The notes: generated by a model not told the origin, from the sequence alone. Positions 1,697 through 59,958 are shown, counted from the first letter of the whole stretch. The stretch is 62,841 nucleotides of DNA, filler included, from Octopus bimaculoides (GCF_001194135.2; 6 parts of 6 records of this genome joined end to end with filler, not necessarily neighbours in it); one strand, 5' to 3'. Program-made: numbers and translations.

Positions 1697-1738
1697 AACT
1701 GTTACTCAGAGTTTCACGTTCCCATCCGTCAGACAGTT
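1697..1738 (-). ncRNA. Type-I minimal hammerhead ribozyme-like motif (A9G variant)
   Basis: Minus strand reads AACTGT-CTGACGG-ATG-GGAA-CGT-GAAAC-TCTGA-GTA-ACAGTT: 6-bp stem I, 3-bp stem II, near-palindromic stem III, GUA site. Confidence 0.7.
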
Positions 1739-2380
1739 GTGCTGAATACTATCGAACAAACAGGAACGTGAAACTGAGTAACAGTTTGTGAGGATTCTTG
1801 CAGCTTTAATAAAAGTGTGTGTGTGTGTGTGTCTGTGTGTGTGTGTCTGTGTGTCTGTGTCTGCGTGTGTGTGTGTCTGTGTCTGTGTGTGTGTCTGTGT
1901 GTGTGTCTCTGTGTGTGTGTGTGTGCGCGTGTGTGTGTGTATATATATATATATATATATATATATATATATATAATTATTACAAATTAAAAGGGTAAAG
2001 GATTATCAATTTATTAATTTATTAATAAATCAACAATTAATAATTTTTACCAAGCCCTTCGGTATGTAAGCACCATTATCGGTGGAGAACTTATTTAAAA
2101 GTTCAAATATATTTATAAACATAATTANNNNNNNNNNNNNNNNNNNNNNNNNNNNNNNNNNNNNNNNNNNNNNNNNNNNNNNNNNNNNNNNNNNNNNNNN
2201 NNNNNNNNNNNNNNNNNNNNNNNNNNNNNNNNNNNNNNNNNNNNNNNNNNNNNNNNNNNNNNNNNNNNNNNNNNNNNNNNNNNNNNNNNNNNNNNNNNNN
2301 NNNNNNNNNNNNNNNNNNNNTGACACCCTAACTACTAAGCCACGCACCTCCACAGAGGAATATATTAATAATAAATAAAT

Positions 2381-2627
2381 GCGCCCTCTTAAAGCCTAGC
2401 CAGGCTCATGGGCCCGCTTTCCCAGTTTCAGTGGCGTATTCCCCAGCTGGACGGGACGCCAGTCCATCGTCGCGTTACTCATTTTTGCCAGCTGAGTGAA
2501 CTGGAGCAACATGAAATGAAGTGTTTTGCTCAAGAACACAACGCGTCACCCGGTCCAGGAATCGAAACCACAATCTTACAATCATGGTGCTGACACCCTA
2601 ACTACTAAGCCACGCACCTCCACAGAG
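2381..2627 (-). mobile_element. tRNA-derived SINE (family F); head of a second copy at 2320-2356
   Basis: A box tggcttagtagttagg, B box ggtttcgattcc, CORE-like ttcttgagcaaaacactt, V-domain-like gatggactggcgtcccgtccag; related copies near 17004-17130, 30905-31140, 44040-44200. Confidence 0.8.
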
Positions 2628-3069
2628 GAATATATTATTCAAAAGAATTCCAACTCTGTCTGTTTTTTATGTTTTATTTATGTTCTTTATAATATTAATG
2701 TAGGATATAGAAAAATGAGATGAAGTATTGATTGCCTTATTGGATAAATGAAATATTGAATATTAAATATTAAAGGACTAGGATACTTTCCTGCATTTTA
2801 GCAGTCTTCAAGGTCCCAGGTTATCACAACAGATATACAGACAGACAGATAGATATATGTACATGCATATTGATAAGTTGGATAGAAACATTGTCTGCCA
2901 CCTGCTTACAATCAGTTATGCATCCACCAATATATACATCAACACACACACACACACACACACACACACACACACACACAGAATTGGTTACATTCATATT
3001 ATCAGAGCTGACTTTAAAACGAATGTGTGAAATCAACAGCAACAACAACAACAACAGCAATATACTTAC

Positions 3070-3140
3070 ATACATGGTTTGCTTCACCCCCAACAGAATA
3101 CGAGATAGAATCACAGTAAACAACGGTAACGTAGCCTTTA
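3070..3140 (-). CDS. SLC35E1: SLC35E1-like transporter, internal exon (71 nt, phase 1/0): (V)KATLPLFTVILSRILLGVKQTMY
   Basis: Matches recalled human KATMPIWVVLLSRIIMKEKQSTK; acceptor ttttcttgtctgtttcag, donor gtaagt; splices in frame to exon 1193-1330. Confidence 0.92.
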
Positions 3141-3369
3141 CTGAAACAGACAAGAAAACAAAGTAGTTAGACATTTCTTGATCTCATAGTTGACTCCATT
3201 CTGAAGAGGAAAAGAAAAGAAAAGGAGAGGACAAAGAAAAACAAAGTGAGTCATTGACTCTGTCATTAGTGATACAGGCATTTTAATGTCAGATGAAATC
3301 CTCACCATTACAGAGGGTTATGGCATCCTGATTTTCAGGGATGCACCTCAGTTTTGAAGGAGTCGTCTT

Positions 3370-3790
3370 GGTTTTCTGGGACTCCTCCCAGTCTTCTGGA
3401 ATTCATCTGCATTTTCTGGATTTCATCCTAACTTTTCAGGATTCATCCCTGTTTCCTGAAATACACCATGTTTTGTAAGCTTCATCTTGATTTTCCAGGA
3501 TTCACTCATTTTCCAGAATTCATCCCATTTTCTGTGAATCGTCCCAGTTTTTTCAAGATTCACTCCAATTTGCCAAGATTTGTCCCTTTTTTCTAGAATT
3601 CATCCCATTTTCCAGGGATCATCAGTTTTCCAGGAATTTTACCAGTTTTCCAGAATTCATCCCATTTTCCAGGAATTGTCCCAGTTTTCCAGGAATAATC
3701 CTAGATTTTCAGCATACACTCCAGTTGTCCAGAAATCCTCCCAGCTTTTCAGAATTCATTCTAGTTTTCTAGGATTCATTCCAGTTTCCA
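3370..3790. repeat. Degenerate minisatellite, about 20-bp unit (ttttccaggattcatcccag)
   Basis: Unit repeats roughly 20 times with drift. Confidence 0.85.
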
Positions 3791-57037: not shown

Positions 57038-57129
57038 CATACATACATAATACATACATACATACTATAACATTCAATAGCATATGCTTTGAACTTTGAA
57101 AATTTGTTACCCAAGCTCGTTTATTCAAT

Positions 57130-57995
57130 TACTAGCTGACATACTCGGTAATTCCCGGGAAAGCGAGGCTTATCTCTTGGTTCCGTTCTCATAACTGTTT
57201 CGCTAATCCAATAACAACAATACGAAGTATGCAGCCCTTAAAACGGTTTTTGTGCATTTACAGAGAATACCAAACTGTCTTACATAGGATCTTGTTTTTA
57301 GGAATTCCCAATAAGTTATGAATACCCAAATTGTGAAGGCAGTTATGTAATAACATGGAATTAGTAACCCGATAGTAAGAATACAAATAAAGTAGCCCCG
57401 AAAAGGGCTTTACGGCGTTCCCAAAGTATATAGAATATAGAAGGAAATACTAATAAGGTATGTATATTAAAACCGTGAAGCATGTTACGTAATAACAAGC
57501 TAATCAGCTATGAGATAATAACAATTCAAAGTAAATAAGTGTGAAAAGGGCTTTTGTGCGTTCCCAGATAATATTACCCTCAGGGGCGCTAGTGTTGATA
57601 TATTCGTGAATAAGTCACTAACTGAAATAAGCGGATCTATTATTTAGGAAAATACTATTTACTTGTTTAGGGATAAATTGCGAAAATAACTCTTACAGTT
57701 AAAATACTAAGAAATAAGCATGCTGAATTTCATTTTTAACAAATAATTTAGGAAAATGAATGGGTTATTTCCCTTAGTTTTTTAAATAAAAATATATTAG
57801 ATATATGTAAGGATCCCTTCCAGGGGCCCTATTATCGATTTTTTTTTCAACAATCTGAGTATGCCATGAGGTTTCCAGACATAAGTTCTACTCACGTGTC
57901 AAGTTTCATCAAAATCAATAAAACGATGTAGGAAGTGTGAGCTAACAACTCCAGAAACACATCCACAGACAGAATTTCCCACATATGTAGTAGAT
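57130..57995 (+). mobile_element. Helitron/Helentron-type non-autonomous element (HINE/DINE-like)
   Basis: Begins tactagctgacatactcggtaattcccggg; ends gtgtcaagtttcatcaaaatc...acagacagaatttcccacatatgtagtagat; T-rich flanks. Confidence 0.65.
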
Positions 57996-58629
57996 TTATT
58001 TATTCAATTATTTATTTATTTATTTATTTATTCTTTTCTCGGCCAGTTGACATATCTTTTATACCGTGTTAAATGCAAAGAAGTTTGTTTGCATGGAGTC
58101 GACACGCCTATATAGTTATATAAATTTATCTTTCATTGCGTATTTATTTCATAAGTTGATTGTGTTACAAATTATGATGTCTGAGGATGTGAATGAGCAA
58201 TAATAATTTCAGCGGTGTAGTTCGCATGAAGCATTGTAGTACAGGAGTAGAAAATGAAAAAAAAAAAAGGAAAATAAAGACTTGAAAAGACAGTAAAAAA
58301 ACATTTGGTAAAAACGGCAGGTAGTGGAGCTAACCCATGCGTGGTTGCATAACATAATGCAGAAGNNNNNNNNNNNNNNNNNNNNNNNNNNNNNNNNNNN
58401 NNNNNNNNNNNNNNNNNNNNNNNNNNNNNNNNNNNNNNNNNNNNNNNNNNNNNNNNNNNNNNNNNTTTGTCCCCCATCACCGCTTGACAACCGGTGTTGG
58501 TGTGCTTACATCCCCGTAACATAGCGGTTCGGTAAAAAAGAGGCAGTGCTTCAGCATGGCCGCAGTCACATGACTGAAACAAGCGAAATAATAAAAGAGT
58601 AGTGGGGTTGATCTGTTCGACTGAATAAA

Positions 58630-58855
58630 CACAACAACAACAACAACAACAATGACGATGATGACGATGATGACAGTTATACCAACACCAACAACAACGG
58701 GCGTTGACCTGGAGTCTAAGCAACACAACATCAATAACAAACACCACCACTACTACTACAACCACCACCACCACAACCACCGCCACCGTCACTACTACTA
58801 CTACTACTACCACCACCACCACCACCACCACCGCCACCACTACCACCACCAGAGG
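58630..58855. repeat. (CAA)n/(GAT)n/(CAC)n/(TAC)n array
   Basis: Directly visible. Confidence 0.95.
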
Positions 58856-59559
58856 TGAATGTGGAGTCAACAAGAGATTGCTCGCTCCGCTGGTTTCTAA
58901 CAAGAAAGGACAAGCCATAAACCAAAGATGTCTTCTTCAGGCTTAATTATAGATGATTCAACAGAAATGATTTTTGTTTATAAATAATTTTCTTCTAATT
59001 TATGATGTTTTCCTGTCGTTTTGTTCTACTCCATTATTTCTTTCTTCATCCGTTTCCTATTCCGCCGCGTGTAAGTAGACATAGGTGTGCAGGTGCTGTT
59101 TGGTTGCTCAGGCATGCGCGCGCACACGTCCGTGTACGAGTGTGTCAGTATGTGCGTGCGTGCGTGTGTGTGTGTGTGTGTTTGTATTTATGTATATATA
59201 TGTATGTGCGCATATATATATATATGCATATATGTATGTATATGTATGTCATTATTCAGTCATATTTCAAGATTTCTTGCCAACAGAGAAAGAGCCGGTC
59301 TCTAACCTAGATCCAAGGCTTCTTTATTGGAATTTCAACATCAACAACAGGGTATGTATGTATGTATGTATGTATGTATGTATGTATGTATGTATGTATG
59401 TATGTATGTATACTTGCAGATTCGCATGTCTTGTTTTATCTCTGTATTCTCATGCACATAGTTACATATTTAGACATGCTCATATATATTTAAACGATAA
59501 ACTTCTGGAAAGTTTTACAGATTTTTATAGTTCCAATGATGGATTGGATCTGTAGTCTT

Positions 59560-59907
59560 CGAATTAGCTACCTCCTTTCTGGTTTTGAGAAGCCTAATTT
59601 CTCAAGATTGGTATTTAAGCAATGTGTTACATCTCCCAGTGCCTCAATAATTACAGGTATAAACCTGAACTTGTAATCTGGATAGAGTAACTGCAGATTT
59701 CTCGGTAGTTCAGCATAGGTATTCTCTTTTTCGCTGATCTTTAGCTTTATGTTAACATGCGCTGGGCAGCTAATTTCCACAACTGTGCACAGTTTCTCTT
59801 CTCTTTCCCAAATCAGTATATCAGGTCTGTTGCGCTTACATTTTATTGAGGTTTTCATTGGGACATTCCACCAGTATTCCTTTTTATTATGAGTGGCTAT
59901 GGTTTCT
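59560..59907 (-). mobile_element. RLE-type (R4/Dong-group) LINE, restriction-like endonuclease fragment
   Basis: WWNVPMKTSIKCKRNRPDILIWEREEKLCTVVEISCP...EKENTYAEL...FIPVIIEALG: PD-(D/E)xK-type RLE motif. Confidence 0.8.
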
Positions 59908-59958
59908 ACCATACTTAAAGTTTCGTGCGGGCAGAACATGTTCACATCATCAGATGTT
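59908..59958 (-). ncRNA. Hammerhead ribozyme-like motif with canonical CUGAUGA/GAAA core
   Basis: AACAT-CTGATGA-T-GTG-AACATGTTCTGCCCG-CAC-GAAAC-TTTAA-GTA: stem II GTG/CAC, near-palindromic ACTTTAAGT stem III, GUA site; stem I disrupted. Confidence 0.65.

Follow-up and report, generated by a model that had tools for sequence, protein, structure and literature searches.

In 62,841 nucleotides of Octopus bimaculoides DNA (GCF_001194135.2; six parts of this genome joined end to end with filler, their whole length being called the window here), five single motifs have the layout of a type-I hammerhead ribozyme and sit in four unrelated short repeats. Probably these are the pseudo long terminal repeat (pLTR) hammerheads of Penelope-like elements (PLEs), persisting as truncated ends or, for the one at 8435, in a non-autonomous element of 190 bp, with the single copies left uncut. 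The window, animal DNA of high AT content, abounds in microsatellites and repeats, and 4,241 of its letters are N. A first-pass annotation had listed six type-I hammerheads for it; three of these (1697, 8435 and 11230) stand, each with one core change, whereas those at 2057, 29160 and 59908 lack stem I, and to the three that stand are now added 2774 and 5360, both absent from that list. The motifs with a full fit, i.e., with stems I and II, a palindrome-like stem III, GAAA and NUH, are as follows, the last figure being the self-complementary positions of stem III.

1697..1738, minus strand: type-I hammerhead fold, A9G variant with core CUGACGG, stem I 6 bp, stem II 3 bp, stem III 8/9
2774..2817, minus strand: type-I hammerhead fold with an extra U between C3 and U4, stem I 5 bp, stem II 4 bp, stem III 6/8
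5360..5415, plus strand: type-I hammerhead fold with the perfect core CUGAAGA, stems I and II 4 bp, stem III ACUAGU (6/6), cut triplet GUU
8435..8471, minus strand: minimal hammerhead with U at position 6 (A6U, core CUGUUGA), stem I 5 bp, stem II 4 bp, stem III ACGU (4/4)
11230..11269, plus strand: type-I hammerhead fold with an extra A between C3 and U4, stem I 3 bp, stem II 4 bp, stem III 8/8

Would shuffled DNA offer as much? The relaxed descriptor, which permits one core change or one extra base and asks for at least 3 bp in stems I and II, was loosened after the cited motifs had been seen, so as to admit them; it returns four motifs (1697 and 8435 on the minus strand, 11230 and 5360 on the plus strand) against a mean of 0.35 in local dinucleotide shuffles of 300-nt blocks, and none of 150 shuffles reaches four, so that under this descriptor the motif density withstands the shuffle check that the earlier proposal had named. 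With a strict core there is one motif against 0.04 (reached in 6 of 150 shuffles), and with an insertion descriptor two against 0.025 per shuffled window (1 of 200 reaching two). The excess is gone when two core changes and a 4-bp stem II are permitted, with 2 against 1.2 and 73 of 200 shuffles doing as well. Five full motifs in 58,600 non-N bases amount to one per 11.7 kb, close to the one per 10 kb first put forward, and several unrelated families are present in the window, as had been claimed. The core CUGANGA is intact in one of the five (5360), the other four having A9G, A6U or an extra base. The anatomy is that of Penelope-type minimal hammerheads, as the first-pass annotation had it, and agrees with the consensus of Cervera 2014, of which two finer features, a bulge between 9 and 10.1 and a G10.1-C11.1 pair, occur together in 8435; 5360 has the pair only, and 1697, 2774 and 11230 have neither.

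The motif at 8435 belongs to a family that can be followed well beyond the window.

8342..8530, minus strand: copy, about 190 bp, of a very abundant short repeat with a TA tract at its 3′ end

The motif has a bulged A after A9, and the U at position 6 (U6) falls at window position 8463 with the predicted cut between 8440 and 8439; it agrees with the Cervera 2014 consensus feature by feature except at position 6. For a mapping to 8342-8530 at 80% likeness, roughly 6% of each of two RNA runs was used along with two DNA-type contig sets, relatives below that likeness falling outside the capture. Matches were found in 8,087 and 7,619 DNA-type contigs and in 3,168 of 12.9 million and 3,036 of 12.0 million RNA reads, and though depth in such a mapping is no copy number, the family is clearly very abundant. 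At position 6 no letter besides U reaches 5% in any of the four runs, with an RNA depth of about 2,000 reads per run. Position 17 has only C and U above 5% (U in 19-37%, which is permitted), variation is 2-6% at position 4 and 10-65% at many sites of the flanks, and in one loose-end consensus the free position 7 is A while position 6 is still U. Whether core variants are fixed in family consensuses had been put forward as a check, and here A6U looks lineage-wide rather than a matter of copy decay. An alternative register with a canonical A6 was rejected by inspection, its stem II having only 1-2 bp, and so was the idea that U6 makes a special self-paired off state, since an A at position 6 pairs the core too.

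The 8342-8530 copy is joined at its 5′ end to another repeat where other copies adjoin (TA)n. In all four runs TA-rich sequence makes up the loose ends before 8357 and 8364, apart from one group of 62 reads, and beyond 8528 there are 63 reads that continue into (TA)n; in being flanked in this way the family behaves as the short non-autonomous element by microsatellites that had been envisaged. Seven RNA reads, three and four from the two runs, link the element's end to its start via a CAAT/(AT)n spacer in three forms, and a further eight have a partial-tandem joint from 8530 to 8413; neither joint occurs among the DNA contigs, which break at microsatellites. In ordinary RNA-seq libraries such as these the end-to-start joints fit either circles or genomic tandems. 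In the same libraries the cut site has no pile-up of read starts or ends and no step in depth, reads crossing it freely, and both directions are about equally covered. We read the family as a short passenger element which is read through in host transcripts and stays mostly uncut. It reached very high copy number with U6, which suggests that fast cleavage is not required for the family's spread.

In searches elsewhere, a 21-22-base pattern of the family had no match in metagenome or viral contigs, a translated frame met one unrelated repetitive protein only (it looks like a translated spacer-repeat array) and a word-indexed search nothing, and these translated-frame searches gave no link to the start of a PLE open reading frame (ORF) or to other species. 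At 8452, 268 and 178 RNA reads break off into one common sequence as against few DNA contigs, which is probably a single highly expressed locus with an internally deleted copy lacking the 5′ core strand. A TAGTGGTCA-like short word is found at the TA-adjacent end of both the 8435 and the 5360 families (8511-8530, 5560-5572 and 13670-13685), in opposite orientation relative to their hammerheads; it may be chance or a shared terminal signal.

The motifs at 11230 and 2774 form a lineage with an extra base in the core, and the second was found by looking upstream of a flank homologous to that of the first.

2641..2777, minus strand: 3′ flank of the 2774 motif; in blastn two stretches match the 11230 downstream flank, one of 72 nt at 83% (E 1.5e-15) and one of 33 nt at 85% (E 0.001)
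11311..11507, plus strand: 3′ flank in common with the 2774 element, broken up by AT-rich expansions

The odds of an insertion-type hit in a given 100-nt slot are near 2e-5, by arithmetic from the shuffle rate. In a core-anchored comparison (plain MAFFT misaligned on AT-rich tracts) both are 34 nt long from C3 to position 17, and whereas just 17 of the 34 bases agree, the two share every one of the 11 invariant core bases; those that differ include the inserted base, N7 and H17. The 11 stem pairs comprise six changed on both sides, four the same and one broken; of the stem covariation across copies that had been expected of real motifs, these two copies offer the six compensatory pairs. The extra base is placed between C3 and U4 because the register of stem I is thereby kept; a bulged C before position 3 is a possible alternative reading for 2774. 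This variant also looks lineage-wide, on two copies only. As both kept every invariant core base and three stems around the extra base, selection on the fold in their ancestors is suggested. The 11230 motif begins 22 nt past a long (TA)n tract and has TA-rich sequence directly downstream, and 2774 lies on the sense strand in the same intron as 1697, between two exons of a triose-phosphate-transporter (TPT) family gene. In that inter-exon stretch the cited 2057 site also lies, likewise on the sense strand.

About 3045-3150 and 1184-1342, minus strand: two exons of a TPT-family gene (Pfam TPT)
1668..1815, no strand assigned: inverted-repeat insertion, self-inverted match by blastn at E 1.7e-30, its hairpin seen by Rfam miRNA models

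Two sense-oriented motifs in one intron fit inert monomers. The insertion has a minus-strand arm, with the 1697 motif, head-to-head with a shorter plus-strand arm (about 1764-1815) which starts inside stem II, has no 5′ core strand and leads into (GT)n. An inverted 5′-truncated partner is a layout known from Penelope-like insertions (Craig 2021), seen here in 1668-1815 only, and close opposite-strand motif pairs are described in Cervera 2014, with which the arrangement agrees. The repeat would make a long intronic hairpin, a possible editing substrate. The 5360 motif, with its long stem II, came independently from the descriptor search; its element extends to about 5575 and then gives way to TA-rich sequence. 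Among the listed RNA runs none contained the stretch 4720-7160, which says nothing about its expression. A second partial copy of that element, without the motif, is at 13660-13810 with its terminal part inverted relative to the internal part.

How might such pieces have come to be where they are? By likeness to PAc, the Poseidon element of the lizard Anolis with its pLTR hammerhead and AT-rich targets (Frangieh 2024, PMC11167929), the likely route is one of protein binding, nicking and reverse transcription, with mobilisation in trans. A copy would be transcribed by read-through, an autonomous Penelope-like protein would bind the RNA around the motif and nick AT-rich or (TA)n DNA, and reverse transcription would begin downstream of the motif; where this stopped early or an inversion occurred, short passengers and short and head-to-head copies such as 1668-1815 would result. 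The palindromic stem III, with duplex energies of -0.4 to -10.7 kcal/mol, would form only between two copies, so that cutting would need a tandem transcript and perhaps protein. A bolder version, for which our expectation is low, is that the extra-base lineage is an active dimer- or protein-dependent ribozyme while the U6 element of 190 bp exemplifies Penelope-dependent spread with a crippled or metal-conditional ribozyme, its fold serving as a protein-recognition signal.

Several observations weigh against the explanation given at the outset and need to be set beside it. In 321 window frames scanned with Pfam (21, plus 300 of 663 listed, picked for closeness to motifs or for length) there was no reverse transcriptase (RT) or GIY-YIG domain, though truncated copies would lack them; the scan matched the TPT exons and two mariner domains, besides weak hits to unrelated families. 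As these frames place neither RT nor GIY-YIG near any motif, the pLTR setting is a putative one. The Rfam hammerhead families match nothing in the whole window (E<=1), the only scan to which 2774 and 11230 were put, nor in three motif-sized stretches (E<=10). Folding z-scores are unremarkable for all seven stretches, -1.1 to +0.2, which is to be expected of motifs so small, and the predicted monomer folds pair the core. The 8435 motif is not significantly better conserved than its flanks (1 of 37 variable sites against 11 of 152, p 0.47; in an RNA run 4 of 37 against 20 of 152, p 1.0), and the covariation seen between 11230 and 2774 has no counterpart in its stems, where no compensatory change exceeds 5% in the four runs. 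No more than 0.43 of a nearby window stretch's words occur in those runs, which may therefore come from the same species or from a close relative. The insertion lineage is known from two copies, the 11230 motif is set apart from the shared flank by some 40 nt of AT-rich sequence, and the likeness of the 5′ flanks is marginal, being equalled in 77 of 2000 shuffles. As to the microsatellite neighbourhood claimed by the first-pass annotation, a dinucleotide tract of at least 12 nt is indeed within 100 nt of four of the seven motifs measured (2774 excluded), but 12-14% of all window positions are equally close, only 11230 is individually unusual (0.6%), and 5360, 29160 and 59908 are 683-2299 nt away, so within the window closeness is weak evidence.

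The class to which we assign these motifs is already known: dispersed, diverse Penelope-type hammerheads, including those of molluscs, are in print. In Cervera 2014 (PMC4209133) the minimal hammerheads of metazoan PLEs are mostly single dispersed motifs of high variety within a genome, some in opposite-strand pairs, and most single motifs are read as truncated PLEs, with no cleavage of monomers and low cleavage of dimers. The octopus motifs resemble them in type-I layout, short stem I, palindromic stem III of 2-8 nt and many unrelated families per genome, as well as, for 8435, in the bulge after A9 with G10.1-C11.1. However, the cores read among the 56 representatives in their Fig. S3, whose molluscs are Lottia and Crassostrea with no cephalopod, are CUGANGA and UUGANAA, with UUGAAGA once; U6, G9 and a C3-U4 insertion were not seen among them, and while theirs are tied to PLEs, the link of the motifs here to a PLE ORF is a putative one. 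Core variants are known from prokaryotic viruses, A6C in phage Bcep176 and 2a/2b insertions beside C3 in saltern viruses (Perreault 2011, PMC3088659; the A6C study, PMC7151607), and their cleavage is slow or depends on Mn2+ or very high Mg2+. There such variants are rare, whereas here A6U extends across an abundant animal repeat, and the saltern-virus insertions adjoin C3 whereas the single base here is best placed between C3 and U4. RNA-seq of PAc gave no read ends at its cut site, much as the 8435 family has no pile-up there; PAc differs in being autonomous, with a canonical core and protein-assisted cleavage (PMC11167929). Ribozyme-dead mutants did not block insertion by the lizard Penelope protein in vitro (Frangieh 2024), and Craig 2021, where microsatellite targets for Penelope-like insertions are also described, allows that hammerheads in PLEs may be passengers. 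Non-autonomous derivatives of PLEs have been proposed by Li, Clavereau and Pollet 2026 (10.64898/2026.07.22.740005), in whose work 8 of 9 tested frog dimers remained uncleaved, and such derivatives of Penelope-like hammerhead elements figure also in a review (PMC6765202). In octopus, Penelope is a recognised repeat class with abundant families, and the main texts concerned (PMC13282606, PMC8967140) have no ribozymes.

Could all of the motifs instead be 3′ stubs of 5′-truncated autonomous PLEs, with no separate short family and with the 5′ end of the 8435 copies marking a pLTR boundary or a truncation hotspot? The reading of single motifs in Cervera 2014 favours this, the head-to-head layout of 1668-1815 and the rearranged copy at 13660-13810 fit truncation and inversion, and the depth of the 8435 family drops towards 8530, in part as an edge effect. 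It is harder to square with the loose ends of that family, of which none viewed (388 further ones are outside the view) enters a long common upstream sequence, the 5′-end reads instead entering (TA)n, or with copies that break at 8452 and 8494 and then rejoin the same terminal word; family-wide U6 is also easier to explain in a passenger element. Stubs throughout are for these reasons rather unlikely, the more probable alternative being the mixture of truncated ends and one short passenger element given at the outset.

The first-pass annotation had called the elements retrozyme-like. In true non-LTR retrozymes tandem transcripts self-cleave as dimers, circularise and reinsert, and the window would then hold monomer offspring. 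The known ones have tandem units, each with a complete motif, and circular RNA where tested (PMC7229834; Li 2026, 10.64898/2026.07.22.740005); like them, the octopus elements are short non-coding hammerhead-bearing repeats with dispersed monomers, and unlike them, in the window all copies are single and cores variant. The unit of about 200 nt is within the published range (Li 2026; Cervera 2020), Li 2026 has families with a monomer share up to 1, and the seven end-to-start RNA reads fit tandem copies or circles. Yet these are seven among about 6,200 mapped reads, the contigs being silent with the break noted above; the window has no hammerhead-bearing tandem unit, the defining feature, and does not support the label; the cut site lacks any pile-up or step; Cervera 2020 (PMC7229834) ties retrozymes to canonical hammerheads with loop contacts and not to minimal ones; and a position-6 change, A6C, strongly slows cleavage in Mg2+ (PMC7151607). 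We regard true retrozymes as improbable. That the motifs are chance matches in AT-rich, repeat-rich DNA is far less probable still: the descriptors were relaxed post hoc, the excess vanishes on further loosening and Rfam lends no support, and chance is plausible for 2057, 29160 and perhaps 59908, but for the five full motifs it is unlikely given the shuffle results for the relaxed and insertion descriptors, the discovery of 2774 upstream of a homologous flank, and the strict-core 5360, found independently of the first-pass annotation.

The three cited motifs that fail the layout are these.

2057..2082, minus strand: fails the layout; its core, CCGAUAA, has two changes, GAAA is replaced by GAAG, and stems I and III are lacking
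29160..29195, plus strand: doubtful relic; GAAA and ACGU kept, C3A, stem II poor, stems I and II unformed
59908..59958, minus strand: doubtful 5′ hammerhead half; perfect core, 3-bp stem II, GAAAC, without stem I in the cited register

At 59908 the 3′ strand of the claimed stem III coincides with the first codons (S-M-V-E) of a likeness to a retroelement-like protein, and the site may therefore be a junction with that coding fragment. The fragment, 59571-59915, has named protein relatives in Octopus bimaculoides and O. vulgaris; no longer ones were found, Atlas leading to unnamed eukaryotic clusters only. We take it to be R4/Dong-like with a restriction-like endonuclease, Pfam giving no match. 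A short hairpin at 5097-5158 and 1983-2020 is built of two copies, inverted to each other, of an end akin to that of the 2057 element, and a repeat tail with a fold-back, in three copies (27310-27380, 33480-33580 and 59250-59345), has a superficial hammerhead likeness which fails all descriptors.

Among the other contents of the window, 33052-33170 on the minus strand is 5S rRNA-like (47.5 bits against a gathering score of 38) and probably a pseudogene or a 5S-derived repeat. Mariner-type transposase remnants are at 56305-56729 (minus), 6700-7026 (minus) and about 20600-21400 (Transposase_1, HTH_48, the third by eye), and fragments like the 3′ parts of non-LTR retrotransposons at 59500-59915 (minus), 42067-42690 (minus) and 43283-43690 (plus), beside (TAA)n or (ATAC)n. 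A perfect duplication of 336 bp spans a 10-N gap at 14309-14970, with similar ones near 10420-10560 and 43490-43620, and these are likely assembly artefacts. Five gaps of 100 bases, each with 44 N, an identical 12-base AT word and 44 N (17349-17448, 24659-24758, 48242-48341, 54954-55053 and 60726-60825), are a scaffolding artefact.

What goes beyond print, as far as the literature covered extends, is the pair of core variants. Searching it turned up no account of hammerheads in octopus, of A6U across a family or of an insertion of the type C3-N-U4, the alignments of Lunse, Weinberg and Breaker (PMC5785218) and bioRxiv supplements being outside that coverage, and the variants could be in print. 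As standard descriptors and Rfam miss both, counts of animal hammerheads may be low. The U6 family and the insertion lineage are test cases of whether it is the fold or the chemistry that is selected.

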